Position numbers and translations under genes: made by a program. Below the pieces are notes generated by a model. It searched no databases and had not been told where the DNA came from. It was given only the letters and a program-made list of their open reading frames with translations. Positions 2,868-58,499 of a DNA stretch of 64,000 nucleotides are shown here, one piece after another. Every line of letters begins with the position of its first letter. Within the stretch, counting starts at the first letter, position 1. The stretch comes from Folioceros fuciformis (Eukaryota), in assembly GCA_049999805.1 (NCBI GenBank), contig JBNGIO010006113.1:1-64000 (forward strand), read 5' to 3'.

Positions 2868-2888
2868 ACCACTCTCCTATAAAGGTAA

Positions 2889-20277: not shown

Positions 20278-20323
<46 letters not shown>

Positions 20324-40760: not shown

Positions 40761-41049
40761 ACGAGGAGCACAGCAAACTACAGCAGGTTGGCGATGGCCG
40801 GGTATGGTGCATTGCCCACCCGTGTGCAGCCTGCACAACACAGGTGAAAGGAGAGCCAGCTTGGAGCCCACCCACAACATCGAGGTTGAGCACATTGACT
40901 TGGAGTGGCTCAGTTCATGCGCCTGCAACGCATTGACAGGGTGCTTAGGGCCCAGTTACGTGTATACAACTAAGAGCTAAGGGGCCTCCATTTGACCTTG
41001 CTTGCATCAGGGCTGGCCAGACTTGCTTACAATTTTTAGCTTGCCAACT

Positions 41050-42300
41050 AGGGAGAGTGCTATCATCAGGTTGATCACCAGAAGCAATCATCTCTTCGAA
41101 ACAAGCTACTGCTCTGTGACCTTTATCACCAGTACCATAACCAGCGAGCTATAAGGGCATTCCGTGTCACCACATTCTTTGAAGCCAAAGATGTCAAGAA
41201 CCTGGCGCGCAACTTCCACTTCGCCACATTTTGCATACATGTCCACCAGGAATGCTCCCAGCACCACGTTGTCCAGCAATCTGCTTTCAACATTCGGCAA
41301 GTGAGCTGCCTGCCCTTCTGTAAGGCTCCAATGCTACCACAGGCCTTCAGAGGGCAAGCAAAAGTAACATGGTTAGCCATCATCAGGCCATCTTGCTCCA
41401 TCTCTCCATACAGAAGAAGCGAACCTCTTAGCCAAGCCCTCGGTGAGCGTACCCTGCTCACAGTGAATTCCATGTCACCGCATCCTTTGTGGCCAAGATG
41501 TCAATAACCTGGCGTGCATCATCCAGCTCGCCACAATTTGCATTTTCGCCACATTCATGCTTCGCAAAAGCAGAGATTATGGAGAACCACATGAAGGCAT
41601 CTGGTTTGGCTACCCTCGTGAACACATTTATGGCCTCTCGCCGCCTACCTACAGATGCATACATGCGCAAGATATGATCTCCCAAGTATGCATCCGCCTC
41701 GTACCCAAGTTGGACAGCGAGATCATGAACTCGTCGCCCCATAACTAGGTCTTTCTTAGCTGCACACAGCTTCAGCACCGTGCAAAACAGAGAGTGGGAA
41801 ACATGAGAGTCTGTCTGCACCATAGAATCCAGTCCTCGAACGGCCTCAAAAAGCTTCCCCTGCTGACACAACGTGCGCACGGCTGCGGGCGTTACGACTG
41901 ATCCTGCAAGCTTGCGAGGTTGAGGGTCATCTGGAGAGCTCGGCTTGGAAAAAGATGTACCGTGACCCATCTCCAAATCTAACGACACGAGTTGCTCATC
42001 AAACCCAAGCTGTTAAACCACAGGGCCTCGTTGGATCCCTTACGACGGAAGTCAAGCGCACGAGAGCTCTTCTTATCTCGCCTGTTGTCCCAGCATATGG
42101 TAGGCTGCAAGTTCTCGCTGCACACTCCGTCTCGACCCACAAATTTGCTGGGCGTTGGGAGTGCAGGGCTCCTTACACTGCTACACCTGGAGGACTTAAT
42201 GCTTGCCAGTACGTGACAGCTTGAGGCGACATAGGAGGGGGCTCCCCGTAGAATCCCTGCTGGAGACAGACCTTTCTGTTGGGTCCACGACGGGTCCGAT
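41050..42300 (-). pseudogene. Internally deleted paralogue of the PDF-PPR family
   Basis: CWDNRRDKKSSRALDFRRKGSNEALWFNS remnant, LCQQGKLFEAV, PPR fragments; no DYW remnant seen. Confidence 0.85.
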
Positions 42301-42846
42301 TCTCATCGTCCACGAATCTCTGATGGACGATGAGTGCAAATACTGTACCCAGCAAAGTGCCTCGAGTTGGGGACAGAACGTCATCGCCACCTCAGGATGT
42401 AAAACGAATCTCGCTCAGATGTGTAGGGACCCACATTCTGTTCTAGCAGCTTTATTGCATACATGTATGTACTGTACATAGGGATGTCCTACGCTAAGGG
42501 CATAGCATCGCTACGGATGAGCGCCCCTGCGAGTACATGGTACGTGCATAGAGGGAGGACACGGTAAGAAACCTTGAGGCTCGCTAACGGTGAGCCTTGA
42601 TGGGCTTGTCGTCAAGTGTACAGTTCAGATCTCAAATGTTTGAGCGTGTCGGATACATGGCATCCTGGGTGCACCAGTGTGTCCACCTATCTGGCAACCA
42701 TATGAAACTGCATTCGAAATGCTTTGTTACTGTGTCTCAGGTGCTCAACGAAACACCGTCCGCACTACCCTTCAGGGTGGTGTGGTCATGCTCTGCACCT
42801 GGGCATCCTGTCACAGTTTGTTGTTAACCTCATCTGTGCTTGATCG

Positions 42847-45800
42847 ATGGCCACTATACGGCAACCGGACCCGTTGTGGACCCAACAAATTGATGTTTGC
42901 ACAGGGATTCTGCCAGGAGCTCCCGCTCGCCTCACCTTAGGGAGTCAACCTCTAGAACGAACCTGCAGGTGCAGCAGTTTGAGGAGCCCAGCACACTCGG
43001 CTCCCAGTAAATCTATGGATGGGGACCGATTTTGCAGCGACTGTCGTCGCCGCGAGCAGGAGCACTTATGGCAACATTTTTTCCTGGATCCTGCCTTGTG
43101 GTGGGACAACAGACGACATAAGAAGTGTTCCCGTTCCCCAGACTTCCGGCGTAAGGGGTCCAGCGAGGTCCTGTGGTTAAACAGCATGCTGACGCCAGCT
43201 TGGGTTGATGAGCAGCTTGTTGCTTTGGATGTACAGATGGGTCACGGTGGCTCTCGTTCCAAGTCAAGCTCTGCAGATAGTCCTCAACCTCGCAGGCGTC
43301 TAGGATCGGAAATGGGCGTCGTAACGCCTGTAACTGTGCGGATGTTGTGTCAGCAGGGGAAGCTTTCTGAGGCCGTTGGAGCCCTGGAATCTCTGGCGCA
43401 GACAGATTCTCCTATCTCTCAGTCTCTGTTTTTTGTAGTGCTTAAGTTGTGTGCAACAAAGAAGGACCTAGTTGTGGGGCGACGAGTTCATGACCTCACA
43501 GTCAAACTTGGGTACGACTCGAATGCATACTTGGGGAATCATATATTGCGTATGTATGCATCACTAGGTAGGCTGCAAGAGGCCATGGATGTGTTCACTA
43601 GGGTGGGCAAACCAGATGCCTTCATGTGGTTCTCCATAATCTCCGCATACACCAAGCATGGGAGACCTGCAGAGGCTGTACAACTTTACCAGGAGATGCA
43701 TAGGTCAGGAGTGAAGGCAGATGCCCACGTCTTCGTAGCTGCCCTCCAAGCATGTGCATTTACCGCTGACTTGGAGTCTGGCAGGAAAGTGCACTTTGAT
43801 GTGTTGCAGAGTGGCATTCCTCCTGATGTGTTTGTTGGAAATTGCCTGGTTGACATGTATGCAAAATGTGGCGAATTGGAAGCTGCACGTCTGGCCTTTG
43901 ACAGCTTGGCGACAAAGGATGTCGTGACATGGACGGCCCTGATTGCTGGGTACACACAGCAAGGGCTCGGCCATGAGGCTCTTGGTTTGTATGGACAAAT
44001 GGAGCAAGAGGGCCTCATTTTGGCTGACCGGGTTACTTTTGCCTGCCTTTTGAATGCCTGTGGAAGTACTGGTGCCTTGCAGAAGGGCATGCAACTACAC
44101 TCACAGATTGTGGAAAGAGGACTGCTGAATGATCTACTGGTGGGCAACTCGCTGGTGGACATGTATGCAAAATGTGGTGAACTGGAAGGTGCACGCCAGG
44201 TTTTTGACAGGTTGGCGACAAAAGATGTGGTGACATGGACGGCGCTGATTGGTGGGTATGCTCGGCAAGGTCTGGGACAGGAGGCACTTGCTGTGTATGG
44301 ACAAATGGAGGAGGAGGGCCTGATCGTGGCTAACCATGTAACTTTCTCTTGCCTTCTGAAGGCCTGTGCCAGCGCTGGTGCATTACAGATGGGCAGGCAC
44401 CTGCACTCCCAGATTGTTGAAAGAGGGCAGCTTGAAAACATATTGATGGGCAACTGCCTGGTAGACATGTATGCAAAATGTGGTGAACTGGAACATGCAC
44501 GCCATGTTTTTGACATGTTGGCGGCGAAGGATGTGGTGACGTGGAATGCACTACTAGCTGGTTATGCACAGCAAGGACTGGGCCAAGAGGCGCTTGCTCT
44601 ATATGGGCAAATGGAGCAAGAGGGTCTCATTTTGGCTGACCGCGTTACTTTTGGTTGCCTTCTCAAGGCCTGCGCAAGCACGGGTGCTTTACAGACGGGA
44701 AGGCAGCTACACTCGCTTATTGTGGAACGTGGGCATCTCGACGTATGGTTAGGGAACTGCTTGGTGGACATGTACGCAAAATGTGGCGAACTAAGAGATG
44801 CACGCCAGGTTTTTGACAGCTTGGCTTCGAAGGACGTGGTAACATGGAATGCCCTAATAGCTGGACATGCGCAGCAAGGATGTGGCCAGGAGGCGCTCGT
44901 TCTGTATGGACAAATGGAACAAGATGGCCTCATTTTGGCGGACGATGTAACTTTTGCTTGCCTTCTGAAGGCCTGTGCAAGCACTGGTGCCCTACAGACT
45001 GGCCGCCAGCTGCACTCTCGGATCGTGGAAAGAGGACTGCTGGATAAGGTAGTGTTGGGCAACGGCCTCGTGGACATGTATGCAAAATGTGGCAAACTAG
45101 ATGTTGCACGCCAGGTCTTTGACAGCTTGGCCACAAAGAATGTGGTCACATGGAATGCTCTGATAGCTGGATGTGGTGCTTGTGATGAAGGTCACAACGC
45201 AGTAGCTTGTTTTGAGGAGATGTTAGGTAGTGGCGTCCAGCCTGATGATACAACTTTTACTTGCCTTTTGGCAGCGTGCAGTCATCAGGGGCTGGTGCAT
45301 GAGGGTCGCAAGTACTTTAATTCCATGGCAGAAAAGCATGGCATCAAACCTTGTATCGAGCATTACACTTGTATGATCGATCTTCTTGGTCGTGCCGGCG
45401 AATTAGATGAGGCCGAGGACATGCTATTGTCATGTGATGACCGAAGCAATGTTGTGGGGTTGACATCCTTGCTAAATGCCTGCAAGACTCATGGGGATAT
45501 AGAAAGGGCGACGCGTTGTTTTGAAAGTCTGGTTAGACTGGAGCCTCAGAGTGCATCGCCTTACGTGCTGATGGCAAATGCGTATGCAGATGCGGGTAGG
45601 TGGAGCGATGCAGAGAGCATTGAAAGGCAGAGGATGGTGGCAGGAGCCAACAAGAAACCTGCGGTGGCGAGCATTGAGGTGAATAAGCAGGTACATTCAT
45701 TTGTGGTGGGGGAAAGCAGAGATGATCTCGTGCTGAAGACGGAGAGCATGAGTGCGCGTCTGAAGCAGGAAGGGGGCCACGTACCTCACACAAAGTTGGT

Positions 45801-46056
45801 GCTTAAGCCACTGGGCGAGAAGGAAAAGGAAGATGCACTTTGCGGGCACGCTGAGAAGCTGGCTCTAGCGTTTGGTCTGTTGAACACTCCCAGTGGCTCA
45901 CCTCTGGTGGTAACCAAGAATCTACGCATGTGCAGTGACTGCCACAGTTCGACTGAGATCATGTCAAGGGTTGAAAAGAGAGACATTGTCGTAAGGGATG
46001 GGTACCGTGTGCATCGATTCGCTGCTGGTGGCTGCAGTTGTAATGGTAGACCATGA
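42847..46056 (+). CDS. PDF-motif + PLS-PPR + E1/E2 + DYW:KP (GRP-type) protein, candidate U-to-C editing factor
   Basis: PDF motif 43066-43218; five MYAKCG units; KKPAVASIEV, HAEKLALAFG, CSDCH, CSCNGRP*. Confidence 0.95.
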   Translation: MATIRQPDPLWTQQIDVCTGILPGAPARLTLGSQPLERTCRCSSLRSPAHSAPSKSMDGDRFCSDCRRREQEHLWQHFFLDPALWWDNRRHKKCSRSPDFRRKGSSEVLWLNSMLTPAWVDEQLVALDVQMGHGGSRSKSSSADSPQPRRRLGSEMGVVTPVTVRMLCQQGKLSEAVGALESLAQTDSPISQSLFFVVLKLCATKKDLVVGRRVHDLTVKLGYDSNAYLGNHILRMYASLGRLQEAMDVFTRVGKPDAFMWFSIISAYTKHGRPAEAVQLYQEMHRSGVKADAHVFVAALQACAFTADLESGRKVHFDVLQSGIPPDVFVGNCLVDMYAKCGELEAARLAFDSLATKDVVTWTALIAGYTQQGLGHEALGLYGQMEQEGLILADRVTFACLLNACGSTGALQKGMQLHSQIVERGLLNDLLVGNSLVDMYAKCGELEGARQVFDRLATKDVVTWTALIGGYARQGLGQEALAVYGQMEEEGLIVANHVTFSCLLKACASAGALQMGRHLHSQIVERGQLENILMGNCLVDMYAKCGELEHARHVFDMLAAKDVVTWNALLAGYAQQGLGQEALALYGQMEQEGLILADRVTFGCLLKACASTGALQTGRQLHSLIVERGHLDVWLGNCLVDMYAKCGELRDARQVFDSLASKDVVTWNALIAGHAQQGCGQEALVLYGQMEQDGLILADDVTFACLLKACASTGALQTGRQLHSRIVERGLLDKVVLGNGLVDMYAKCGKLDVARQVFDSLATKNVVTWNALIAGCGACDEGHNAVACFEEMLGSGVQPDDTTFTCLLAACSHQGLVHEGRKYFNSMAEKHGIKPCIEHYTCMIDLLGRAGELDEAEDMLLSCDDRSNVVGLTSLLNACKTHGDIERATRCFESLVRLEPQSASPYVLMANAYADAGRWSDAESIERQRMVAGANKKPAVASIEVNKQVHSFVVGESRDDLVLKTESMSARLKQEGGHVPHTKLVLKPLGEKEKEDALCGHAEKLALAFGLLNTPSGSPLVVTKNLRMCSDCHSSTEIMSRVEKRDIVVRDGYRVHRFAAGGCSCNGRP

Positions 46057-47358
46057 GATTGAAGAATTGGCAAGTGCGCCGAAGGTGGACTGCTTGTTGC
46101 GTGGGGGAATCGGAAGTTGTTCCTAGAGGAGTAGACACAGGGACTGCGCTATCCCGCTTCGTACAAGCAGTCAGCAGGGTCTGCCAAATTGCAACACCAG
46201 GCAATTTGGCGTGCATCTGTGTAAGGCCAGTGCCTCACCAGGTCTAATGCTGGCCGAAAAGATCCATTCTGCAGGTTCAGCTGTCTTGCCTGTAAGGGAT
46301 GCAATGTTGTCAGCTCACACCCTAAGTGTCGGCCCCTATCTCATCAGATCTTGCACATGACTGGAGATTATCAGCATGCTAAGCGATGTGGCGCCAGTTG
46401 CCGGATCAGGGCAACTAACCATCCTCCTGACTTCCCGTCAGATGCGCCCCGACATTCTATACAGGTTCATCAAGCTACGGGCGGCATACATATCACCTCC
46501 AACCCCTTTTTCCTCAAGTCTCTGCTTATAACTACTCGAGGCGGCCTTGCTCTGTCACGCCTGAAGCAGTAAGCATACCGATACTCATTGCCTGCAGGTG
46601 CACGTCATGGAATTCGGCTCGGCAGCCCTCTTCCCCTGTGCAGCACTATGTAGACAAGTATGTTTTGAAAGAATTCTCTGCTGTAGGGACTGGATCCGCA
46701 CTCATAGCGAGGAACAGAAATGACTTGCACACTGCAAGTTAAAAATTCCGCTGAGTATTCTTCTGTAAACAAACGCTTCGTTCGAAGCGGTGGCGTCCAG
46801 ATAGTTGCAGCCATGTTCTACCCTTCAACAAAACCTATTTGAACTCCTGAATGTTGAACTACCTGTAGTCCGTCGCCTTGCCCTTGAGGGCAGAGACAGC
46901 AAAAAGCGAATTTCAGGTCTTACGCTGCCTGCCTATTGCTGTTCAAATGTAAACGAGCGGAACGAAATCCTGCAGAGTAAGCAGTTCGCCGAGGACGGAT
47001 GGATAGGTGAGGAACAGGATCCATCACCTGTTCTCCTTAGGGCTGAAATCTCCAAGTAGTCTTGTACAAAAGAGAGGCCAAGCCAATTCCCTTACCGTGG
47101 AAGGAGTATCTGCTACCCATTCCAGTTCCCTGAACTATCGGAGAGGGCCTGCAACAGGCAGAAGCAGCAAGTGCTCAGTTCGCAGGAGACTCGAGAGCAG
47201 AAGCAGAAACCTATTCACGTTGACAGAGTTGTACCTTTGGAACCTCCTGAACTCTAAATGCTTATCCGACAATTACGCAAGGAGAAGGAGCGGAGAGATA
47301 GACCAAGGACGACACCAAACCCTTTTCTTGCATCTCAACAACGTTGGCACGGGAGGGT

Positions 47359-47592
47359 TTAGAACACGCACGTCATGCAAGCGGAGGATGCTGGGAAGGG
47401 GAATAGAGCCGCAGCAGCTGATGATGATGGTGGCTCAAAAGCAGCAGCAGTGCTTGAATTGGCGGCGACGGTGGAAAAGCCCTGCCGCTGCTTGTGCTTA
47501 GCATTGGAGGCACACAAGACATACACCCTCCGCCTCCGCTTCACCACTCTGCAATGCTCGCAAAGCCTTTTCACAGCTGACCGCACCTTCAT
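47359..47592 (-). CDS. rpl36: Nuclear-encoded ribosomal protein bL36, probably mitochondrial, with a C-terminal extension (3' end may be spliced)
   Basis: [38 protein letters not shown] matches the L36 consensus with C-x2-C...C...H zinc ligands. Confidence 0.9.
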
Positions 47593-47876
47593 CCTGGTAG
47601 GAATTGCCGAACCTCGCCTGCACGACCTTGCCTTGCGACGTCTTCAACCGATCTCAACCGAGTTCAGACCTTTGCTGTGCTGCCTCAACAGTCTGAATGG
47701 TCCAATTGCACGGGGTCCACTCAATAAGAGCAGCTTGAATTAATCACAGTGATATACCTACATATTCCGCAGAGGCCACAGCGGTTTCTTTGTTGAAACC
47801 CGCTTGTTTGGATGACTCCTAAGCGGTTTCTTCATGCAGGCCCGGGCGTCATGTTGTAGGTACATCTTCCAGCAGC

Positions 47877-50795
47877 ATGCACGGAGCCTCACCTATGGCC
47901 ACTGTATGGCAAACAGATCCGTTGTGGACCCAACGAACTGGCGTGTCTCCAGGGATTCTTCGAGGAGATCCTGCTCACTTAACCTTAGGTAGTCAAGTTG
48001 TGACAAACAACCCAGCCCCTAGGTGCAGCAGTATAAGGAGCCCAGCACTTCCACTTTCGACGAAATGTGTCGGTGGGGACAGATTGTCTAGCGATCAAAG
48101 TCACAAGGAGCAGGAGCACTTGTGGCGACAGTTTTTCGTGGATCCTACCATGTGGTGGGACAACAGACGAGATAAGAAGAGCTCCCATTTGCCTGACTTC
48201 CGACGTAAGGGGTCCAATGATGTGTTGTGGTTAAACAGCATATCGAAGCCAGCTTGGGTTGACGAGCAACTTGTTTCTTTGGATATGCAGATGGAAAGTG
48301 GTGCCTCTCCGTCCAAGTGGCCCTCTCCAGAAAAGCCTGAACCTGGCACGCATGCAAGATCGGAAATGGGCGTCGTGACCGTGCGCACTTTATGGCGGCA
48401 GGGGAAGCTTTCGGAGGCCGTTGGAGCCCTGGAATCTCTGGCACAATCAGACTTTGTCATCTCTCAATCTCTGCTTTACAATGTGCTCAAACTGTGTGCA
48501 GCCAAAAGGGACATGGTTTTGGGTCGACGGGTTCATGACCTCATCGTCAATCTTGGGTGCGAGTCCGATACATACTTGGCGAACCATATCTTGCGTATGT
48601 ATGCATCTGGAGGCAGGCTACAGGAGGCCATGAATGTGTTCACCAGGGTGGGAAAACCCAATGCTTTCATGTGGTTCTCCATGATCTCTGCATATGCAAA
48701 GCATGGGAAACCTCATGAGGCCATACAACTGTACCATGAGATGCGTAGGTCAGGGTTGAGGGCGAGTCCTCACGTATTTGCAGCTGCCCTTCAAGCTTGT
48801 GCATTAGCTTCCGACTTGGAATCTGGCAGAAAAGTGCACTGTGATGTGTTGCACAGTGGCCTTCGTCCTGACTTGGTTGTTGGAAACTGCCTGGTGGACA
48901 TGTATGCCAAATGTGGCGAACTGGAAGATGCACGCCGGGCGTTCGACAGCTTGGCCACAAAGGACGTGGTGACATGGACGTCCCTGATTGCTGGGTATAC
49001 ACAGCAAGGGCTCGGCCAAGAGGCGCTCGTACTGTATGCGCAAATGGAGCAAGATGGCCTGGTTTTGGCAGATCGAGTTACTTTTGCTTGCCTTCTGAAG
49101 GCCTGTGCGGGCACTGGTGCCTTGCAAAAGGGCAGGCAGCTGCACTCACTGATTATCAATAGAGGGCTCCTACATGAAATACTGGTGGGCAATTGCCTGG
49201 TGGACATGTATGCAAAATGTGGCGAACTAGACGCTGCACGCCAGGTTTTTGAAGTGTTACCTAGAAAGGATGTGGTGACATGGACGACCCTGATATCGGG
49301 GTATGCAGAGCAAGGCCTCGGTGAAGAGGCTCTTGTTCTGTATGGACAGATGGAGCAAGAGGGGCTCATTTTGGCAGACCGTGTGACTTTTGCTTGCCTT
49401 CTGAAGGCTTGTGCTAGGACCGGTGCCCTACTGAAGGGCAGGCAGCTACACGCACTGATTGTGGAAAGAGGACAGCTGGACAGATGGCTGGGCAACTGCC
49501 TGGTGGACATGTATGCAAAATGTGGTGAACTGAGGGAAGCACGCCGGGTTTTTGACAGCTTAGCTTCAAAGGATGTGGTGACGTGGAATGCCCTGATTGC
49601 CGGGTATGCACAGCAAGGTCTTGGCCAAGAAGCGCTTGCCCTGTACGGACAAATGGGGCAAGACGGCCTCAGTTTGGCTGACGATGTTACTTTCTCTTGC
49701 CTGCTGAAGGCCTGTGCAAGCACTGGGGCCTTGCAGACTGGCCGGCAACTGCACTCAGAGATAGTGAAACGAGGACTGCTGGATAACGTAGTGTTGGGTA
49801 ACTGCCTGGTAGACATGTATGCAAAATGTGGCAAGCTGGAAGTTGCACGCCAGGTTTTCGACAGCTTGTCCACAAAGAATGTGGTCACATGGAATGCATT
49901 GATTGCTGGTTGTGGTGCTTGTGATGAAGGTTACAATGCAGTAGCTTGTTTTGAAGAGATGTTAGTTAGTGGTGTTCAGCCTGATGATACAACTTTTACG
50001 TGCCTTTTGGCAGCGTGTAGTCATCAGGGGCTGGTGTATGAGGGTCGCAAGTACTTCGATTCCATGGCTGAACAGCATGGCATCAAACCTTGTATCGAGC
50101 ATTACACTTGTATGATCGATCTTCTTGGTCGTGCCGGCGAATTAGACGAGGCTGAGGACATGCTCTCGTCATGTGATGGTCAAGGCAGTGTGGTGGGGTT
50201 GACATCTTTGCTAAATGCCTGCAAGACTCACGGGGATATCCATAGAGCGACGCGTTGTTTTGAAAGTCTGGTTAGACTGGAGCCTCAGAATGCATCAGCA
50301 TATGTGCTCATGGCCAATGCCTTAGTAGACGCAGGGAGGTGGAGCGATGCAGAGAGGATCGAAAGACAGAGGTTGGTAGCAGGAGCTAACAAGAAGCCTG
50401 CAGTGGCAGGCATTGAGGTGAATAAGCAGGTACATACATTTGTGGTGGGGGAGAACAGAGATGATCTTGCGCGCAAGGTGGAGAGTGTGAGTGTACGTCT
50501 CAAGAGGGAAGGGGGCCACGTGCCTCACACAAAGTTGGTTTTGAAGCCACTGGGTGAGAAGGAGAAAGAAGATGCCCTTTGCGGTCATGCTGAGAAGCTG
50601 GCTCTGGCTTTTGGTCTCTTGAACACTCCGAGTGGCACCCCTCTGGTGGTAACAAAAAACCTACGCATGTGCAGTGACTGCCACAGTTCGACCGAAATCA
50701 TGTCAAGGGTTGAAAGTAGAGACATTGTTGTAAGGGATGGGTATCGTGTCCATCGATTCGAGTCTGGTTTTTGCAGTTGTAAGGGTCGACCGTAA
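47877..50795 (+). CDS. PDF-motif + PLS-PPR + DYW:KP (GRP-type) protein
   Basis: PDF motif 48120-48272; four MYAKCG units; KKPAVAGIEV, HAEKLA, CSDCH, CSCKGRP*. Confidence 0.95.
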   Translation: MHGASPMATVWQTDPLWTQRTGVSPGILRGDPAHLTLGSQVVTNNPAPRCSSIRSPALPLSTKCVGGDRLSSDQSHKEQEHLWRQFFVDPTMWWDNRRDKKSSHLPDFRRKGSNDVLWLNSISKPAWVDEQLVSLDMQMESGASPSKWPSPEKPEPGTHARSEMGVVTVRTLWRQGKLSEAVGALESLAQSDFVISQSLLYNVLKLCAAKRDMVLGRRVHDLIVNLGCESDTYLANHILRMYASGGRLQEAMNVFTRVGKPNAFMWFSMISAYAKHGKPHEAIQLYHEMRRSGLRASPHVFAAALQACALASDLESGRKVHCDVLHSGLRPDLVVGNCLVDMYAKCGELEDARRAFDSLATKDVVTWTSLIAGYTQQGLGQEALVLYAQMEQDGLVLADRVTFACLLKACAGTGALQKGRQLHSLIINRGLLHEILVGNCLVDMYAKCGELDAARQVFEVLPRKDVVTWTTLISGYAEQGLGEEALVLYGQMEQEGLILADRVTFACLLKACARTGALLKGRQLHALIVERGQLDRWLGNCLVDMYAKCGELREARRVFDSLASKDVVTWNALIAGYAQQGLGQEALALYGQMGQDGLSLADDVTFSCLLKACASTGALQTGRQLHSEIVKRGLLDNVVLGNCLVDMYAKCGKLEVARQVFDSLSTKNVVTWNALIAGCGACDEGYNAVACFEEMLVSGVQPDDTTFTCLLAACSHQGLVYEGRKYFDSMAEQHGIKPCIEHYTCMIDLLGRAGELDEAEDMLSSCDGQGSVVGLTSLLNACKTHGDIHRATRCFESLVRLEPQNASAYVLMANALVDAGRWSDAERIERQRLVAGANKKPAVAGIEVNKQVHTFVVGENRDDLARKVESVSVRLKREGGHVPHTKLVLKPLGEKEKEDALCGHAEKLALAFGLLNTPSGTPLVVTKNLRMCSDCHSSTEIMSRVESRDIVVRDGYRVHRFESGFCSCKGRP

Positions 50796-51785
50796 GGATG
50801 AAGAAGTGGCTGGAGCGTCGAATGTGAACTGTGGGAGTGGCTAGGCGCTCGAAGAGGAGTGTGCTGTGCTTCACTGTCAAGATGCGCCTAGCATTGTGGG
50901 CCGAACGGCAGCATTTGGCAAGTTAACTGCCTTTGATCTTGCCAAAATGAAGTGAAGTGCTCCTGCTCGGCCCAGAAGGTCCACCACTCATGTGCATGAG
51001 TCCTTCACTGGAAGTGATGCGGTGTTTTTCTCGTCTACCCTCAGAGTTCAACATGACAAACAAGAGACAAACCACCAGACATGCAGACTCAGTGTACTAC
51101 ACAATGGGGTGCGGTCTGGCAGGAGGCGATTTTGGTGGCACGAGGCGATTTTGGGAGCACGTTCGTATCACTTCACCGTGTCCTTGACAAGATCAGGCTT
51201 CAATCTGGGTGTGCTGGGTGGCTATGTTTCTTATGTTCACCGCATCAACCTCCTGCAACGCGTGAACCCAAGCTCCCTGAGTTTCTGCGCATGGTAATCA
51301 AACTCTGGGCTACACCCACATGGCCATTCCTTGCTGTCCTGTGCATGGAGCCGTCTGTCAAGACGCAGATCGCAGAGGGAAGGCACCCACCCTATGGTAC
51401 CTTCACAGGACTGCTGCAAATGACAGCTATGACCTCTTCTTCGTTCACATTACCAGAGGGGCAAGGTCTACACAGCATACCCGTGATGTCGTGCTTTGTG
51501 GCACGGTTCCTTTCCAGCAAGTCCCTCTAGATTAAGGGGTTGTTTAGCCGAGCAGAAAGCTCTCACCGCCCCCAACGTTTAGCTGTCTCAAATCAACTAA
51601 ATCTCTTCTACTGTGAGGTTCAGAACGTGTATCCGGATCCGGATAGTTAGATGCAATTTTATATCTTTGAGACTGCAAACAACTAAATCATTTGGATGAA
51701 TGGGATACATGATTCAGAATTACTATGACAATCGCCTGCAATTGGAACGTCTCCCGTTCACGTGCGCGTGGCTAGTCCTCCGTCC

Positions 51786-54700
51786 TCACGGTCGACCCTC
51801 ACAACTGCAACTACCAGCTACAAATCGATGCACACGGTAAGCATCCCTTACAACGATATGTCGACTTTCGACCCTCGACATGATCTCGGTGGAACTGTGG
51901 CAGTCACTGCACATGCGCAGGTTCTTAGTTACCAGCAGAGGTGTACCACTCGGAGTGTTCAAGAGACCAAAAGCCAGAGCCAGCTTTTCAGCATGCCCAC
52001 ACAGCACATCTTCCTTTTCCTTCTCACACAAAGGCTTTAACACCACCTTCGTCTGGGGCACATGGCCCCTTTCCTTTAAGCTGCCTAACTTGAGTGCCAT
52101 GTCATCTCTTCTCTCTCCCACTGCAAACCTATGTACCTGCTTCTTCACCTCAACCGTCGCTACTGCAGGTTTCTTGTGAGCTCCAGCTACAGTCCTCTGT
52201 GTTTCTATCCTGTCAACATCGGTCCATCTACCTGCATCTGCATAAGCGTTGGCCATGAGCACATAGGCAGATGCACTCTGAGGCTCCAGTCTCAACAGAC
52301 TTTCAAAACAACGCCTCGCCCTGTCTACATCCCCGTGAAGTTTGCAAGCATTCAGCAACGACGTCAATCCCACCACATTGCTTTCACTCTCGCATGACAA
52401 CAGCAGGTTCTCGGCCTCATCTAAATGGCCTGCACGCCCAAGAAGATCTATCATGCCAGTGTAATGCTCCATGGTAGGTTCGACGCCATGCTCTTCAGCC
52501 ATGGAACCAAAATGCTTGCGACCCTCATGCACCAGCCCCTCATGACTGCAGGCTGCTAGGAGGCAAGTAAAAGTAGTTTTATCGGGCTGGATACCAGCGA
52601 CTAGCATCTCTTCGAAACACGCCACTGCCTTACGACCTTCATCACAAATACCGCAGCCGGCTATGAGAGAATTCCATGTCACTACGTTCTTTGTGGCCAA
52701 GCTATCAAACACCTGGCGTGCAACTGCCAACTCACCACATTTTGCATACATGTCCACCAGGCTGCTGCCCAGCACTACGTTATCCAGCAGTCCTCTTTCC
52801 ACCAGTCGTGTGTGCACCTCCCTGCCCTTCTGCAAGGCACCACTGCTTGCACAGGCTCTTAGTAGCCAAGCAAACGTGACATGGTTAGCCAAAACCAGGC
52901 CATCTTGCTCCATCTCGCCATACAGAACAAACGCCTCTTGGCCGAGCCCTTGCTGTGCATACCCGCCTATGAGGGAATTCCATGTCACTTCATCTTTTAA
53001 GGCCAAGCCGTCAAAAACCTGGCGTGCATCTCCCAGTTCGCCACATTTTGTGTACATATCCACCAGGCAGTTGCCCAACCATGTGTCGAACTGCCCTCTT
53101 TCTACAATCAGGGAATGTAGCTGCCTCCCCTGCTGTAGAGCATGAGTGCTTGCACAGGCATTCAAAAGGCAAGCAAAGGTAACATGGTCGGCAAAAATGA
53201 GGTCCTCTTGCTCCATTTGTCCGTACAGAACAAGAGCCTCCTGTCCAAGTCCTTGTTCTGCATATCCAGCGATCAGGGCATTCCATGTCACCACATCCTT
53301 TGTGGTCAGGCTGTGAAAAACTTGGTGTGCATCTTTCAAGTTGCCACATTTTGAATACATGTCCACCAGGCAGTTGCTCAACCATAAGTCACCTAGGAGT
53401 CCCCTTTCTACAATCTGTACGTGCAGGTGCCTGCCCATGTGTAAGGCACCAGTACTTGCACAGGCTTTCAAAAGACAGGCAAACGTAACAGGATTGGCCA
53501 CGATCAGGCCGTCCAGCTCCATCTGCTTAAACAGTGCAAGCGCCTCATTCACAAGCCCTTGCTGGGCATACCCAGCAATCAGTACAGTCCACGTCACAAC
53601 ATCCTTTGTGGCCAAGCTTGCAAAGACCTGGCGTGCTTCTTCCAGTTCACCACATTTTGCATACATGTCCACCAGGCAATTGCCCAACACTATGTCCCCC
53701 AGCCGGACGCCTCTTTCAACCATCTGTAAATGCAGCTGCCTGCCTTTCTGTACGGCACGCGCGCTGGCACAGGCCGTTAAAAGGGAAGCGAAAGTAACAT
53801 CGTTGGGCACAACAAGGCCCTCTTGCTCCATACGTCCAAACAAAACAAGCGCCTCTTCGCCAAGCCCTTCTCGTGCATACCCAGCTATCAGGACATTCCA
53901 TGTCACCACGTCCTTTGTGGCCAAGCTGTCAAAAACCTGGCGGGCATCTTTCAGTTGGCCACATTTTGCATACATGTCCACCAGGCAGTTGCCCAACACT
54001 TTTTTCTCTAACAGTCCTCGTTCCACAATCTGTGAGTGCAGCTGCCTGCCCTTCAGTAACGCCCCAGCGCTTGCACACGCATTCAGAAGGCAAGCAAATG
54101 TAACATGGTCAGCCAAATGTAGGCCCTCTTGCTCCATTTGTGCGTACAAAACAAGCGCCTCTTGGCCAAGCCCATGCTGTGTATACCCAGTTAACATTGC
54201 ATTCCAAGTCACGACATCCTTTGTGACCAAGATGTCGAAGGCCTGGCGAGCATCTTTGAGTTCTCCACATTTTGCATACATGTTCACCAGGGAGTTGCCA
54301 ACAAATAAGTCAAGGGGAATGCCACTGTGCAACACGTCACAATGCACTTTTCTCCCAGATTCCAGGTCACCGCCAAATGCACAAGCTTGAAGGGCAGCTA
54401 CAAAGACGTGAGCATCCGCCTTCACTCCTGCCCTGCGCATCTCATGATACAGCTGTATGGCATCATTAGGTTTACCATGCTTAGCATATGCAGAAATTAT
54501 GGAAAACCACATGAAGACATTCGGTTTCCCCACTCTGGTGAACACATCCATAGCCTCCTCCAGCCTTCCTCCACATGCATACATACGCAAGATATGGTTC
54601 CCCAAGTAGGCATCCGACTCGTACCCAAGTTTGACAACGAGGTCATGAACTCGTCGACCCACAACCAGGTCCTTTTGAGCTGAACACAGTTTCAGCACGA

Positions 54701-55292
54701 TGAAAAACAGAGACTGAGAAATAGGAGAATCCGTCTGTGCCAGGGATTCCAGGGCTCCAACTGCCTCACACAGCCTCCCCTGCTGACATAAAATGCGGAC
54801 GGTTACGACGCCCGCCTCGGATCCTGCACGGGTGCAAGGTTCAGGATTATCCGGAGAGTTTGACTGGGAAGGAGAGGCTCCATGACCCGTCTGCTTATCC
54901 AAAGAAAAAAGCTGCTCGTCAACCCAAGCTGGTTTGAGCATGCTGTTCAACCACAGGACCTCGCCGGACCCCTGAAGCCGGAAGTCTGGCAAATGGGAGC
55001 TCTTCTTATCTCGTCTATTGTCCCACCACGTTGTAGGCTTCAGAAAAAATTGGTGCCACGAGTGCTCCTGCTCCTGACGACGATCAGAACGGGAAAATCC
55101 AAACGCATCCTCACATTTTCTCAAAAGTAGAAGTGCTGGGCTCCGTACAAAACTGCTCCTGGAGACTTGGTTGCTTGCTGCAGGCTGACTCCCTAAGATG
55201 AGATGGGCAGGAGCTCCTTGTAGAATCCCTGTAACAGCATTACTCTGTCGGGCACACAGAGGGTCCGGTTGTAATACTGCGGCCATGTTCAA
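51786..55292 (-). CDS. PDF-motif + PLS-PPR + DYW:KP (GRP-type) protein, longest paralogue
   Basis: PDF motif 54909-55061; six MY(A/S/T)KCG units; KKPAVATVEV, HAEKLA, CSDCH, CSCEGRP*. Confidence 0.95.
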   Translation of the reverse strand: MNMAAVLQPDPLCARQSNAVTGILQGAPAHLILGSQPAASNQVSRSSFVRSPALLLLRKCEDAFGFSRSDRRQEQEHSWHQFFLKPTTWWDNRRDKKSSHLPDFRLQGSGEVLWLNSMLKPAWVDEQLFSLDKQTGHGASPSQSNSPDNPEPCTRAGSEAGVVTVRILCQQGRLCEAVGALESLAQTDSPISQSLFFIVLKLCSAQKDLVVGRRVHDLVVKLGYESDAYLGNHILRMYACGGRLEEAMDVFTRVGKPNVFMWFSIISAYAKHGKPNDAIQLYHEMRRAGVKADAHVFVAALQACAFGGDLESGRKVHCDVLHSGIPLDLFVGNSLVNMYAKCGELKDARQAFDILVTKDVVTWNAMLTGYTQHGLGQEALVLYAQMEQEGLHLADHVTFACLLNACASAGALLKGRQLHSQIVERGLLEKKVLGNCLVDMYAKCGQLKDARQVFDSLATKDVVTWNVLIAGYAREGLGEEALVLFGRMEQEGLVVPNDVTFASLLTACASARAVQKGRQLHLQMVERGVRLGDIVLGNCLVDMYAKCGELEEARQVFASLATKDVVTWTVLIAGYAQQGLVNEALALFKQMELDGLIVANPVTFACLLKACASTGALHMGRHLHVQIVERGLLGDLWLSNCLVDMYSKCGNLKDAHQVFHSLTTKDVVTWNALIAGYAEQGLGQEALVLYGQMEQEDLIFADHVTFACLLNACASTHALQQGRQLHSLIVERGQFDTWLGNCLVDMYTKCGELGDARQVFDGLALKDEVTWNSLIGGYAQQGLGQEAFVLYGEMEQDGLVLANHVTFAWLLRACASSGALQKGREVHTRLVERGLLDNVVLGSSLVDMYAKCGELAVARQVFDSLATKNVVTWNSLIAGCGICDEGRKAVACFEEMLVAGIQPDKTTFTCLLAACSHEGLVHEGRKHFGSMAEEHGVEPTMEHYTGMIDLLGRAGHLDEAENLLLSCESESNVVGLTSLLNACKLHGDVDRARRCFESLLRLEPQSASAYVLMANAYADAGRWTDVDRIETQRTVAGAHKKPAVATVEVKKQVHRFAVGERRDDMALKLGSLKERGHVPQTKVVLKPLCEKEKEDVLCGHAEKLALAFGLLNTPSGTPLLVTKNLRMCSDCHSSTEIMSRVESRHIVVRDAYRVHRFVAGSCSCEGRP

Positions 55293-55892
55293 GGACCTGT
55301 GCCTGACGTCAGGATGCGTGAGACCCCTGCTGTCCGGTTTGTTACCCCACCAGTCTAAGAGATCCTGGAAAAAGAGATGCCACAGCTGTTCCTGTCACTC
55401 TTTTTCTATTCCGTCGAGAGGCTTGGCCGCCTCCCACTTGGACAAGTGCGGGAGCGCAGAGCCAAGATGTGGCTGAAGAGCCACAAATTTTGCCACGAAA
55501 CAGCCCTGCCTGCATCATTGCCATGGCAGCCCTGATTTGGTTGCCTCCCTGGACTTGAAGGGCAGGCAAGGCAGGCACCTGATTAACGGTCCACATGTCT
55601 GTTGAACCGCTCGGTGCCAACACGTGCATGACCAAGGCCCCATCCCATTTGCATTTCACCAATTCTGTAAAGTGGCGACTCCAATCGAGAACGCGTAAGC
55701 ACCCACCGAGACACGGGTGGACAAACGACCCGTAGGAATTAGGGTTTAAGGCAATGGTGGCATCTACCAGGCAACCACCTTTGTTTTGGTGGGATTTTGC
55801 GAGCAACTGTCTTCCCGGGTGGTTTAATCATGCATGCCGACAGGAGTAGCTATAGTTTGTTGTGTCCTTGTTCCGACAGGGGTCCCTGAACG

Positions 55893-58499
55893 ATGGCCAC
55901 TACTCGGCCACCGGACCCTTCGTGGACTCAGCAACTCGCTGTGTCAACGGGGATTCTACGAGGAGGAGTTCCCGCTCACCTCACCTCAGCGAGTGAACCC
56001 GTGGCAAACACCAAAGCCTTCAGGTGCAGCAGTGTACCAAGCCCAGAATTTTCACTTTCGGGAAAATGTTTGGGTGGGGAGGGATTCTCCTGGGATGGTG
56101 CTCGCCGGGTGCAGGAGCACTTGTGGCAACAGTTTTTTCTGGATCCTACCAGGTGGTGGGACAACAGACAAGATAAGAAGAGCCCGGGTGTGCCGGACTT
56201 CCGGCGTAAGGGGTCCAGTGAGGTCCTGTGGTTAAACAGTTTGCTCAAGCCAGCCTGGGTTGATGAGCAACTGGTGTCTTTGAAGTTGCAGATGGCTCAT
56301 AGTGCGTGTCCTTCCAGTGCCAGCTCTGTGGACAATCCTAAACGTGGCATGCGTGAAGGATCGGAAATGGACGTCGTAACTCCTGTCAGCGTGCGCACAT
56401 TATGTCAGCAGGGGAAGCTTTCTGAGGCCGTTGGAGCGCTGGAATCTCTGGCACAATCAGACTCTGCCATCTCGCAGACTCTGTTTTACACTGTGCTAAA
56501 ACTGTGCACAGCTAAGAAGGATCTGGTTGTGGGGCGACGAGTTCATGACCTCACTGTCAAACTTGGGTACGAGTCGGATGCATACTTGGGAAACCATCTC
56601 TTGCGCATGTATGCATCACGAGGTAGGCTGCAGGAGGCCATGGATGTGTTCACCAGGGTAGGCAAACCAAATGCCTTCATGTGGTTTTCCATAATCTCTG
56701 CATATGCTAAGCATGGGAAACCTAATGTGGCCATACAACTGTACCATGCGATGCGTAGATCAGGAGAGAAACCGGATGATTACGTCTTCGTAGCTGCCCT
56801 TCAAGCTTGTGCATTCGCCGCCGACTTGGAGTCTGGGAGAAAGGTGCACTCTGATGTTCTGCACAGTGGAATTTCTCCTGGTTTGTTTGTTGGAAACTGC
56901 CTGGTGGACATGTATGCCAAATGTGGCGATCTGGAAGATGCACGGAGGGCCTTTGAAAGCTTGGCCAGGAAGGATGTCGTGACATGGACGGCCCTGATTG
57001 CTGGTTATGCACAGCAGGGGCTCGGCCAAGAGGCCCTTGTTCTTTATGGGCAAATGGAGCAACAGGGCGTCGTCGCTAACGATGTAACTTTCGCTTGCCT
57101 TCTGAATGCCTGTGCAAGCGCCGGTGCTTTACAGAAGGGCAGGCAGCTGCACTCACAGATTGTTGAAAGAGGACTGCTGGACAACGTAGTGTTGGGCAAC
57201 TGCCTGGTGGACATGTATGCAAAATGTGGCGAGCTGGCAGTTGCACGCCAAGTTTTTGACAACTTGGCTACAAAGAATGTGGTGACATGGAATGCACTGT
57301 TGGCTGGGTATGCACAGCAAGGGCTCGGCCAAGAGGCACTTATTCTGTATGGTCAAATGGAACAGGAGGGCCTCATTTTTGCTGACCGTGTCACTTTTGC
57401 CTGCCTGCTGAAGTCCTGTGCAAGCACTGGTGCCTTACAGACAGGTAAGCAGTTGCACTCAGACATTGTGGAAAGAGGACTGCTGCATGACATTGTGTTA
57501 GGAACTTCCCTTGTGGACATGTATGCAAAATGTGGCGAACTGGATGCTGCGCGCCGGGTTTTTGATAGCTTGCCCAGGAAGGATGTGGTGACATGGACGG
57601 CTCTAATATCTGGGTATGGTGTTTGTGACCAAGGGTACAACGCAGTAGCTTGTTTTCAGGAGATGTTGGTCGCTGGTATCCAACCTAATGATGCGACGTT
57701 TCTTTCCCTGTTAGTAGCATGCAGTCACGAGGGACTGGTGCACGAGGGTCGCAAGCACTTTGCATCCATGACTGAGCAACATGGCATCAGACCTACATCT
57801 GATCATTACAATTGCATGATTGATCTTCTGGGGCGTGCAGGCCATTTAGATGAGGCTGAGAGCATGCTCTTATCATGCGAGTGCGGAAGCAACGTTGGGG
57901 GACTGACGTGTTTGCTGAATGCGTGCAAGAGTCACGGGGATATAGAGAGGGCGATACGGTGTTTTGACAGCATTGTTAGACTGGACCCTCAGTGGGCGTC
58001 TGCATATGTGCTCATGGCCAATGTCTACGCGGATGCAGGTAGGTGGACCGATGTACAGAGGATTGAAACACAGCGGCTGGCAGCAGGAGCCAGCAAGAAA
58101 CCTGCTGTGGCGGGCATTGAGGTGAAGCAGGAAGTACATACATTTGTGGTGGGCGAACACAGAGCTGACATTGCTCTCGTTTTGGACAGTGTGAGTGCTC
58201 GTCTGAAGCAAGAAGGGGGCCACGTACCTCACACGAAGTTGGTGTTGAAACCAGTGGGTGAGAAGGAAAAGGAAGATGCGCTTTGTGGGCATGCTGAGAA
58301 GCTTGCTCTGGCGTTCGGTCTCCTGAACACTCCGAAGGGCACTCCCCTGATGATAACCAAGAATCTACGCATGTGCAGTGATTGCCACAGTTCCACTGAG
58401 ATCATGTCAAGGGTCGAAAACAGAGATATTGTAGTAAGGGATGGATATCGTGTGCATCGATTCTGGGCTGGTTGTTGCAGCTGTCAGGGTCGGCCCTGA
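55893..58499 (+). CDS. PDF-motif + PLS-PPR + DYW:KP (GRP-type) protein, shortest paralogue
   Basis: PDF motif 56121-56273; three MYAKCG units; KKPAVAGIEV, HAEKLA, CSDCH, CSCQGRP*. Confidence 0.95.
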   Translation: MATTRPPDPSWTQQLAVSTGILRGGVPAHLTSASEPVANTKAFRCSSVPSPEFSLSGKCLGGEGFSWDGARRVQEHLWQQFFLDPTRWWDNRQDKKSPGVPDFRRKGSSEVLWLNSLLKPAWVDEQLVSLKLQMAHSACPSSASSVDNPKRGMREGSEMDVVTPVSVRTLCQQGKLSEAVGALESLAQSDSAISQTLFYTVLKLCTAKKDLVVGRRVHDLTVKLGYESDAYLGNHLLRMYASRGRLQEAMDVFTRVGKPNAFMWFSIISAYAKHGKPNVAIQLYHAMRRSGEKPDDYVFVAALQACAFAADLESGRKVHSDVLHSGISPGLFVGNCLVDMYAKCGDLEDARRAFESLARKDVVTWTALIAGYAQQGLGQEALVLYGQMEQQGVVANDVTFACLLNACASAGALQKGRQLHSQIVERGLLDNVVLGNCLVDMYAKCGELAVARQVFDNLATKNVVTWNALLAGYAQQGLGQEALILYGQMEQEGLIFADRVTFACLLKSCASTGALQTGKQLHSDIVERGLLHDIVLGTSLVDMYAKCGELDAARRVFDSLPRKDVVTWTALISGYGVCDQGYNAVACFQEMLVAGIQPNDATFLSLLVACSHEGLVHEGRKHFASMTEQHGIRPTSDHYNCMIDLLGRAGHLDEAESMLLSCECGSNVGGLTCLLNACKSHGDIERAIRCFDSIVRLDPQWASAYVLMANVYADAGRWTDVQRIETQRLAAGASKKPAVAGIEVKQEVHTFVVGEHRADIALVLDSVSARLKQEGGHVPHTKLVLKPVGEKEKEDALCGHAEKLALAFGLLNTPKGTPLMITKNLRMCSDCHSSTEIMSRVENRDIVVRDGYRVHRFWAGCCSCQGRP

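Follow-up and report, generated by a model that had tools for sequence, protein, structure and literature searches.

Why should a group of plant organelle editing factors carry, ahead of their pentatricopeptide repeat (PPR) arrays, a conserved motif that resembles a part of another protein family? This question was raised by a gene cluster of Folioceros fuciformis that lies in a stretch of 64,000 nucleotides (assembly GCA_049999805.1, contig JBNGIO010006113.1, positions 1 to 64,000 of the forward strand), which was analysed as a whole and is called the window here. The initial annotation had read the motif as the PDF motif of OSB proteins, joined to PPR proteins with a DYW:KP domain of the GRP type. 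We asked whether the motif is what it seems to be, whether it belongs to the working proteins and what it may do there.

The window holds four intact single-exon ORFs for PLS-class PPR proteins with an E motif and a DYW:KP domain (Table 1). The initial annotation had counted four intact genes, and to these we add two decayed copies on the minus strand of the same cluster. The paralogues could be aligned over their whole length, and with a PPR array, an E motif and a DYW-type deaminase domain (Pfam E values of 3e-102, 1e-11 and 1e-31 for PPR, E_motif and DYW_deaminase in gene 1) they are PLS-class PPR editing factors. The reading frame is unbroken from the conserved ATG in the PDF-PPR genes; in gene 2, this ATG is probably the second one, six codons in. 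Both decayed copies have lost the integrity of the motif, and copy B retains a PDF remnant at 40396-40914 with a 9-residue deletion and a DYW-type end at 36944-38359. We regard the cluster as tandem paralogues, four intact and two dead, from a family of nuclear genes that encode RNA-editing factors of organelles. A PPR ORF at 32910-36413 has no PDF motif. None of the sequencing runs containing the locus was recorded as RNA; the contigs of the best-matching run were identical to the window in the intergenic DNA too, so this run behaves like DNA.

Table 1. Positions of the genes, their terminal domains and the decayed copies in the window
Feature	Position	Strand	Description	Basis
Decayed copy B	36944..40722	-	Full-length relative split across several frames	OB-linked PDF profile, E 1e-7
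Decayed copy A	41038..42296	-	PDF remnant (41982-42302) and first PPRs; frameshifted, truncated	OB-linked PDF profile, E 1e-9
Gene 1	42847..46056	+	1069 aa; presequence, PDF, linker, PLS PPR array, E motif, DYW:KP (GRP)	Single ORF; Pfam
Gene 1 PDF motif	43066..43218	+	Residues 74-124	Translation; OB-linked PDF profile, E 9e-23; AlphaFold2
Gene 1 DYW:KP domain	45655..46053	+	133 aa; KP box, HAE at 65, Lys88, CSDCH at 93, C-terminal GRP	
Gene 2	47877..50795	+	972 aa; architecture as gene 1	ORF
Gene 2 PDF motif	48120..48272	+		Translation; OB-linked PDF profile
Gene 2 DYW:KP (GRP) domain	50394..50792	+	133 aa	
Gene 3	51786..55286	-	1166 aa; architecture as gene 1	ORF
Gene 3 DYW:KP (GRP) domain	51789..52172	-	128 aa; 5 aa deleted ahead of HAE; Lys, HAE and CSDCH retained in register	
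Gene 3 PDF motif	54909..55061	-		Translation; OB-linked PDF profile
Gene 4	55893..58499	+	868 aa; architecture as gene 1	ORF
Gene 4 PDF motif	56121..56273	+		Translation; OB-linked PDF profile
Gene 4 DYW:KP (GRP) domain	58098..58496	+	133 aa	

Each gene has one motif of about 51 residues, which begins about 70 residues from the N-terminus. Translation of the four coordinate ranges gave exactly the version that had been quoted in the initial annotation and three paralogous versions of it, all ahead of the PPR array. In an alignment of the motif region of the four genes (66 columns), the mean column identity was 84% and 36 columns were invariant. The motif had been described as better conserved than its flanks, and this was found again in the mean pairwise amino acid identity, which was 0.76 for the motif, 0.51 for the presequence and 0.49 for the linker. 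No Pfam model, PF00436 included, matched any of the four N-terminal parts.

Profile searches in both directions agreed that this is the PDF motif known from OSB proteins. Of 1.84 billion representatives, 740 proteins matched a profile of the four copies at E<=1e-3, and 210 did so at E<=1e-10; 79 of the 150 matches listed have an OB/SSB-like domain before their PDF repeats, and OSB3 of Euphorbia peplus and OSB3 of Amborella are among the matches. When an alignment was used as the query of a second, word-indexed protein search, many of the matches listed were named OSB1, OSB2 or OSB3 and carried PF00436, and a single-sequence query of the same search gave no match. The ESM Atlas gave no usable match. 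The reverse profile, built from 102 motifs of 71 OB-domain proteins only, was run against the window's 1292 six-frame ORFs; it matched the four genes at E values between 4e-24 and 2e-22, and besides them only the two decayed copies. These matches are far beyond chance. P35, D36 and F37 did not vary when the four window motifs were aligned with 11 motifs from the database, and all residues that are invariant in OSB proteins were retained in the window. At the level of sequence, the results demonstrate homology between the PDF domain of the window and the PDF motif of OSB proteins.

The two groups of proteins share the invariant W, F, P, WWD.R, K, PDF, LW, P.W and L positions as well as their reciprocal profile matches, and organelle targeting is probable for both. 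In OSB proteins, however, the PDF motif is C-terminal, often repeated and accompanied by an OB/SSB-like domain, whereas in the window proteins it is N-terminal, single and followed by the PPR array and a deaminase-like domain. Pfam found no OB-fold or SSB-like domain in the N-terminal parts of the four genes, and the four proteins are for this reason not OSB proteins. The OB profile and the PPR query had no matching protein in common.

The PDF motif was defined as a motif of about 50 residues with a Pro-Asp-Phe signature (PMC6963530), and reviews describe that of AtOSB1 as sufficient, or responsible, for the binding of ssDNA (PMC6963530, PMC4166229). With a probability of roughly 0.55, we read the architecture of the four paralogues as an old fusion in which the PDF domain stays in the mature protein and, we infer, binds single-stranded nucleic acid without sequence specificity. 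The protein would begin with a disordered presequence of about 62 residues, probably a targeting peptide, followed by a PDF domain of about 60-70 residues that is predicted to fold independently as a helix, a small beta hairpin and a helix. A tether of about 25-35 residues, apparently disordered and fast-evolving, would then lead to the PPR array, the E motif and the DYW:KP domain. There the PDF domain would most likely play an auxiliary part in holding single-stranded nucleic acid. A PPR array lies on its RNA with the N-terminal end pointing to the 5' side, so that a tethered PDF domain would reach the RNA just upstream of the PPR footprint; alternatively, on its flexible tether, it may contact single-stranded DNA nearby in the nucleoid. 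In either case it could raise the affinity or the local concentration of the editor, while the PPR code would still set the specificity and the DYW:KP domain would still do the catalysis. OSB1 and OSB2 are reported to prefer ssDNA over dsDNA or RNA (PMC4166229), and a role on the RNA side is thus not the obvious default.

It is also possible, but in our opinion unlikely, that the PDF domain is mainly a module for protein-protein contacts or assembly, which docks the editor on OSB, PDF-bearing or nucleoid proteins or makes the editor oligomerise. Tandem arrays of up to 12 PDF motifs per protein occur among the database relatives and would fit roles in avidity or as a scaffold, AtOSB2 is described as a tetramer (PMC6963530), and the invariant aromatic residues that are abundant in the domain could make an interface. 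However, no partner is known, and ssDNA binding was the only functional statement on the PDF motif found in the accessible texts of PMC6963530, PMC4166229 and PMC13393729. Prediction of a complex from two PDF regions gave no answer (score 0.00) and counts neither for nor against this reading.

The binding of nucleic acid by the PDF domain presupposes that the domain is part of the working protein. Its position within the first 125 residues would also agree with a motif that is removed with the targeting peptide, lies upstream of the true start or is a decaying relic, and an in-frame Met directly after the motif in three of the four genes means that PDF-less isoforms are possible. Several results make such an exclusion from the working protein very improbable. 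Gene 3 has no downstream Met, and since the motif and the PPR array share one uninterrupted ORF, the motif is probably neither spliced out nor left upstream of the start. Over the six pairs among the four paralogues, dN/dS averaged 0.24 for the PDF motif and 1.12 for the adjoining linker, compared to 0.57 for the presequence, 0.19 for the PPRs and 0.14 for the DYW:KP domain. The motif is not evolving neutrally; it is under purifying selection and has been selectively maintained, and the conservation of all OSB-invariant residues argues in the same direction. The motif has the same N-terminal position in fern and lycophyte proteins, one of which, from a fern transcriptome ORF, has both PDF and PPRs.

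Structure prediction also argues against a loss of the motif with the transit peptide. The PDF domain alone was modelled by AlphaFold2 with a pLDDT of 85 and a pTM of 0.71. In a model of residues 1-340 of gene 1, the pLDDT was below 50 for residues 1-62 and 133-156, 72-93 for the PDF domain and above 87 for the PPRs, with a predicted folded module at about residues 63-132. The PDF domain is thus predicted to fold independently between a disordered presequence and a disordered tether, and is unlike the presequence before it. Among solved structures, a sequence search returned no relative but only short matches that look like chance (best E 0.55), and Foldseek found nothing in the PDB at E<=0.001 (best E 4.9). 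VIA-align was run on 48,161 chains; the highest Z was 4.0, and no row was set off from the others. The modelled module matches no known fold that we could name, which is no proof of a new fold.

To our knowledge, KP-type U-to-C editors are the only enzymes for the U-to-C reaction. The C-terminal signature noted at the outset was present in all four proteins, which have KPAVA at the start of the domain, HAE, KNLR, CSDCH and a CSCxGRP ending. Their assignment to the DYW:KP/GRP class also stood, as the domains fit the hornwort GRP subgroup as published (PMC9478123, PMC11845758), which is marked by a KP box and not a PG box, HAE and not HSE, a length of 132-133 aa, Lys88 and a C-terminal GRP; the length is 133 aa in three of the four genes and 128 aa in gene 3, which has the same residues. 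The hornwort GRP proteins on which KP2 and KP3 were based (PMC9478123) are similar to the window genes in the PLS PPR array, the E motif and a 133-aa DYW:KP domain with the KP box, HAE, Lys88, CxxCH and the C-terminal GRP. They differ in that no N-terminal PDF is described for them in the accessible text of that paper, and the designer proteins reported there have a thioredoxin/His tag at the N-terminus, unlike the window genes. U-to-C editing of the GRP type was shown in the literature for designer consensus proteins only, and the GRP-based ones worked poorly, with about 22-26% editing (PMC9478123).

The fusion occurs in other plants. PPR proteins with an N-terminal PDF made up 12 of the 150 matches listed, the named sources being Selaginella, Diphasiastrum, Adiantum, Ceratopteris and a Pteridium transcriptome, and 18 of the 120 matches listed in the second search were Diphasiastrum PPR proteins with 2-3 PDF copies. 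The fern transcriptome ORF joins PDF and PPRs in one sequence. Like the window genes, the fern and lycophyte proteins (e.g. hypothetical proteins of Diphasiastrum complanatum and the Selaginella 'PPR At3g09040-like') have an N-terminal PDF and then a PLS PPR array. Unlike them, they have one to three PDF copies and end in E, E+ or canonical DYW (PG box, HSE, DYW) but not in KP/GRP; those of lycophytes end in canonical DYW or in E motifs. Judging from these sequences, the fusion is not special to this window, to the GRP type, to DYW:KP proteins or to U-to-C editors, and because the PDF is found on canonical DYW and E-ended PPRs, its distribution gives no support to a link with U-to-C or DNA editing. 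The idea that the PDF redirects the editor to ssDNA, and that the DYW:KP domain alters bases in organelle DNA as well as in RNA, could appeal to the ssDNA preference reported for OSB PDF motifs (PMC4166229) and to the cited title of a work on designer PPR proteins binding ssDNA, but it deserves hardly any credence, since an N-terminal PDF on ordinary DYW and deaminase-less E-class PPRs is not tied to one chemistry and no sign of DNA editing appeared in this analysis.

The window motifs fell into a clade of 14 rows, all PPR-linked (SH-aLRT 96), in a motif tree of 66 columns in which 35 of the 59 inner forks were unresolved and whose rows were hand-picked from a sample itself retrieved with the window's motif. 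The fern members share this well-supported clade with the window. A tree in which all 27 PPR-linked motifs were held to one clade was not rejected (p-AU 0.89) and had the better likelihood, and PPR-linked motifs clustered apart from the OB-linked motifs of OSB proteins. Mere species relatedness was rejected as an explanation of this clustering, as the OSB motif of Diphasiastrum sits with the OB-linked motifs and not with the PPR-linked motifs of Diphasiastrum. In terms of the tree, the PDF domain of the window belongs to a PPR-linked group that is common to PLS-PPRs of ferns and lycophytes with several C-terminal classes. Because the PPR-linked motifs can form one clade, we infer that the PDF-PPR fusion is probably old.

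The initial annotation took the architecture to be possibly undescribed, and our search of the accessible literature likewise found no paper on it, though other papers or supplements may still mention it. The uses of 'PDF motif' in the accessible literature included OSB papers and none on a PPR fusion, and the accessible text of a 2026 survey of the OSB family (PMC13393729) has 0 mentions of pentatricopeptide, hornwort or fusion. PPRs with accessory domains, such as RRM-PPR (PMC13386178), are alike in that an extra nucleic-acid-binding module is joined to a PPR protein; OSB, PDF and single-stranded DNA each have 0 occurrences in the main text of that paper. Since no Pfam model detects the PDF motif, surveys based on domains would miss these fusions.

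PPR-DYW editors attract intensive study, on the one hand with regard to how organelle gene expression evolved and on the other as programmable RNA base editors. It appears that a conserved N-terminal domain, predicted to be folded and related to a known ssDNA-binding motif, has been overlooked on many editing factors of seed-free plants. A wider and rather doubtful proposal is that the PDF was an ancestral built-in helper of the PLS-PPR editors of land plants, which held them on single-stranded nucleic acid at the nucleoid and coupled editing to transcription; it would have persisted in the hornwort-like, fern and lycophyte lineages, which have no MORF proteins, and have disappeared from seed plants, in which MORFs assumed the part of helper. 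If this were true, native PDF domains might improve the weak GRP-type designer U-to-C editors. The fusion bears on how editing works in plants without MORF proteins, and for the biology of OSB proteins it shows the PDF domain to be a mobile module that is not confined to OSB proteins.

On sequence comparison, the motif near the N-terminus of the four intact PPR genes (genes 1-4) is the PDF motif of the OSB proteins, as the initial annotation had proposed. Translation of the four ranges to which the motif had been assigned reproduced exactly the version quoted and its paralogous versions. In a 66-column alignment, the motif region had 36 invariant columns and a mean column identity of 84%, and the whole N-terminal parts had a mean of 76%. 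A profile of the four window motifs, searched against 1.84 billion representative proteins, gave 740 matches at E<=1e-3, of which 210 reached E<=1e-10 and 19 reached E<=1e-30; among them are two proteins named OSB3, one from Euphorbia peplus (P0048, E 4e-22) and one from Amborella (P0014). Among the 150 matches listed (best 150 of 740), 79 had an OB/SSB-like domain ahead of at least one motif copy, as counted by an iterated HMM seeded on the retrieved protein P0035; 12 were PPR proteins and 59 were repeat-only proteins or fragments. Of ten proteins scanned with Pfam, five had SSB at E<=0.01, and two of these five passed the curated cut-off. Alignment A3, used as the query of a second search, retrieved 359 proteins at E<=1e-5 from 8000 candidates, and many of the 120 listed were named OSB1, OSB2 or OSB3, with PF00436. 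In the reverse direction, which the initial annotation had called for, an HMM was built only on motifs from OB-domain proteins (102 motifs, 71 proteins) and run over the window's 1292 six-frame ORFs; its only matches were genes 1-4, with E-values from 4e-24 to 2e-22, and the two decayed copies, with 1e-9 and 1e-7. Window and database motifs share a set of invariant residues, which includes the Pro-Asp-Phe triplet by which the PDF motif is defined and named (PMC6963530). These matches in both directions and the invariant triplet identify the motif. Pfam found no OB/SSB-like domain in the N-terminal parts of genes 1-4, and no protein matched both the OB profile and the PPR query; lacking such a domain, the window proteins are not themselves OSB proteins.

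Scanned in six frames with the HMM, the window showed four full motif copies and two decayed ones (table). In gene 1, Pfam recognized PPR (E 3e-102), E_motif (1e-11) and DYW_deaminase (1e-31); in none of genes 1-4 did the first ~200 residues match a Pfam family. Numbered from the KP box, the DYW:KP domains of genes 1, 2 and 4 are 133 aa long, carry HAE at 65, Lys at 88 (KNLR) and CSDCH at 93, and end in GRP; that of gene 3 has lost 5 residues ahead of HAE but keeps the same residues in register. Hornwort DYW:KP domains are described as comprising two subgroups, DRH and GRP, with Ser replaced by Ala in the HxE box, and designer GRP-based proteins as giving U-to-C editing of about 22-26% (PMC9478123). 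A domain length of 132-133 aa and a Lys88 essential for U-to-C editing are also reported (PMC11845758). The last domain of genes 1-4, judged by these residues, fits the hornwort GRP subgroup, and the KP and GRP class assigned at the outset agrees with the published description in HAE, Lys88, length and GRP. By this fit the source would be a hornwort. Upstream of gene 1 lies an ORF for a relative in which the HMM scan found no PDF motif and Pfam no DYW match, so that PDF-bearing and PDF-less relatives are adjacent in the window.

Features of the window
Feature	Position	Strand	Description
Copia-type LTR retrotransposon ORFs	1071-9965	+	Pfam: RVT_2, integrase and two gag/Pol_BBD ORFs; two or more elements or fragments
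Nuclear rDNA fragment	19856-21115	-	Complete 5.8S rRNA, 150 bits; LSU rRNA, first ~810 model positions in two pieces, no full LSU (Rfam)
PPR-like fragment	23623-24810	+	Short; 33-49% identity (tblastn with gene 1); overlaps 248-aa minus-strand ORF without Pfam match
ORF	26727-28952	+	741 aa, no Pfam match
PLS PPR ORF	32910-36413	+	1167 aa, E motif; from residue 117 on, ~50% identity with gene 1
Decayed copy B, pseudogene	36944-40722	-	Full length, several frames (tblastn with gene 1)
Decayed copy B, motif remnant	40396-40914	-	Six-frame HMM scan
Decayed copy A, pseudogene	about 41038-42296	-	Truncated (tblastn with gene 1)
Decayed copy A, ORF	41458-41970	-	Begins at the Met that follows the PDF
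Decayed copy A, motif remnant	41982-42302	-	Six-frame HMM scan
Upstream block GGTG...TCATGC	about 42780-42800		Partly conserved, ~50-90 nt upstream of common ATG; equivalents at genes 2 and 4
Gene 1	42847-46056	+	Uninterrupted ORF, 1069 aa, standard code
Met directly after PDF, gene 1	43237-43239		In frame; equivalent codons in genes 2 and 4, not gene 3
Antisense ORF	43686-44516	-	Across PPR array
Gene 2	47877-50795	+	Uninterrupted ORF, 972 aa, standard code
Antisense ORF	48791-49816	-	Across PPR array
Gene 3	51786-55286	-	Uninterrupted ORF, 1166 aa, standard code
Antisense ORF	53359-54390	+	Across PPR array
PDF-like stretch	55293-55394	-	Degenerate half motif, HMM score 18, E 1e-4
Gene 4	55893-58499	+	Uninterrupted ORF, 868 aa, standard code

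Nucleotide conservation among genes 1-4 turns strong at a common ATG, from which the reading frame is open through the PPR array. Mean Nei-Gojobori dN/dS over the six paralogue pairs was 0.57 for the presequence, 0.24 for the PDF motif, 1.12 for the PDF-to-PPR linker, 0.19 for both the first PPRs and the C-terminal PPR/E region, and 0.14 for the DYW:KP domain. The PDF is therefore constrained like known functional domains, whereas its flanks are not, and the comparison of motif with linker suggested by the initial annotation came out in favour of the motif. The Met after the PDF in genes 1, 2 and 4 is a possible alternative start for a PDF-less isoform. The block upstream of these genes, whose remaining upstream DNA is poorly alignable, is possibly a core promoter or 5' UTR element. 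The PDF-like stretch lies directly upstream of the gene 3 ATG, in frame and just past a stop codon, and was not detected upstream of genes 1, 2 and 4; it may be what is left of a further PDF copy in tandem, as in P0005 and the Diphasiastrum proteins. Antisense ORFs of 160-343 aa, including others beyond those tabulated, are most likely a by-product of repetitive, biased coding sequence. Elsewhere in the window, the rDNA looks like an isolated partial unit, and the most G+C-rich part (24-34 kb, 0.55-0.58) contains the 741-aa ORF.

The fusion also occurs in other plants. Among the best 150 of 740 matches, 12 were PPR proteins with an N-terminal PDF, and Pfam detected PPRs in 10 of these. They came from Selaginella (P0120), Diphasiastrum (P0137, P0099), Adiantum (P0066, P0059), Ceratopteris (P0138, P0122) and a Pteridium transcriptome (P0069, P0147), with P0005 (three PDF copies), P0108 and P0140 in addition. 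P0108 has the same architecture as genes 1-4, KP box and GRP end included, and the transcript-derived P0069 holds PDF and PPRs in a single ORF. The 120 matches listed of 359 (A3) included 18 PPR proteins of Diphasiastrum complanatum with two or three PDF copies; P0187, P0202 and P0209 have a canonical DYW end (PG box, HSE, DYW), most of the remaining 15 have an E-region end, and P0172 combines PDF, PPR, E and E+. Fragments P0113, which its source labels as a PPR protein, and P0139 cluster with PPR-linked motifs; the 90% cluster of P0139 has Sphagnum proteins, among which no PPR was found. No named seed-plant PPR protein was among the matches listed (150 of 740; 120 of 359). Two other proteins could be additional PDF architectures or else fused gene models: P0001 of Kingdonia (1160 aa) has 12 PDF copies, then a weak SSB match, and P0054 (1526 aa) combines three PDF copies with a kinesin motor domain.

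In a FastTree built from 329 unique motifs, three changes sufficed for the PPR-linked versus OB-linked label, compared to a mean of 54 with shuffled labels and 40 with whole proteins shuffled. For IQ-TREE, 62 of these motifs (66 columns) were chosen, 27 PPR-linked from 21 proteins and 35 OB-linked from 26, with unclassified rows left out. The label changed twice on this tree, and its starred branches force only one change. The window motifs fell in a 14-row clade, all PPR-linked and with fern members (SH-aLRT 96). The motif of P0165, a Diphasiastrum OSB, grouped with OB-linked motifs and not with the Diphasiastrum PPR-linked ones, indicating that grouping is driven by architecture and not by species. 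A tree with all 27 PPR-linked motifs constrained to a single clade was not rejected (p-AU 0.89), and its likelihood was 12.95 units above that of the free quick search; the tree is unrooted, with 35 of 59 forks unresolved on 66 columns. A single old fusion is the simplest reading, with which these motif trees are consistent without amounting to proof.

AlphaFold2 modelled the motif region (15 aligned sequences) with pLDDT 85 and pTM 0.71, as a helix at 2-17, short strands at 22-24 and 37-39, and a helix at 56-68. In a model of residues 1-340, pLDDT was below 50 at residues 1-62 and 133-156, 72-93 in the PDF blocks and mostly above 87 in the PPR region. The models predict a folded module between a disordered presequence and a flexible tether, with the PPR solenoid following. 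Among solved structures, no relative of the module was found by sequence search and none resembling it by Foldseek (best E 4.9) or VIA-align (48,161 chains, best Z 4.0).

The PDF motif of AtOSB1 is reported to be sufficient for ssDNA binding (review, PMC6963530), OSB1 and OSB2 to favour ssDNA over dsDNA or RNA (review, PMC4166229), and a 2026 OSB survey calls the PDF the domain mediating ssDNA interaction (PMC13393729). The motif in genes 1-4 is homologous to it, under selection, modular in its predicted fold and recurrent across C-terminal classes of PLS-PPR proteins, and by analogy we infer that its role in the mature protein is most likely an auxiliary one, the binding of single-stranded nucleic acid. 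Because PPR tracts run N-to-C along RNA 5'-to-3', a tethered N-terminal PDF would reach nucleic acid 5' of the PPR footprint, or neighbouring ssDNA in nucleoids. That the PDF is instead a protein-interaction module is rather unlikely, at perhaps one chance in five. A non-functional or cleaved segment is improbable, since the dN/dS of the PDF is that of a constrained domain. The PDF directing editing to DNA is the least credible reading: the same domain occurs on E-class and canonical DYW proteins, which makes a tie of its role to U-to-C chemistry or DNA editing unlikely.

In the literature searched, we found no description of the PDF-PPR fusion. A 2026 kingdom-wide survey of fusions in editing factors has no mention of OSB, PDF or single-stranded DNA in its main text (PMC13386178), and the available part of the 2026 survey of 182 OSB genes does not mention pentatricopeptide or fusion (PMC13393729). 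Pfam has no model detecting the PDF motif, and surveys that rely on domain models would therefore overlook the fusion. PDF-PPR proteins join known parts in an architecture that is evidently widespread and, in the literature searched, undescribed.
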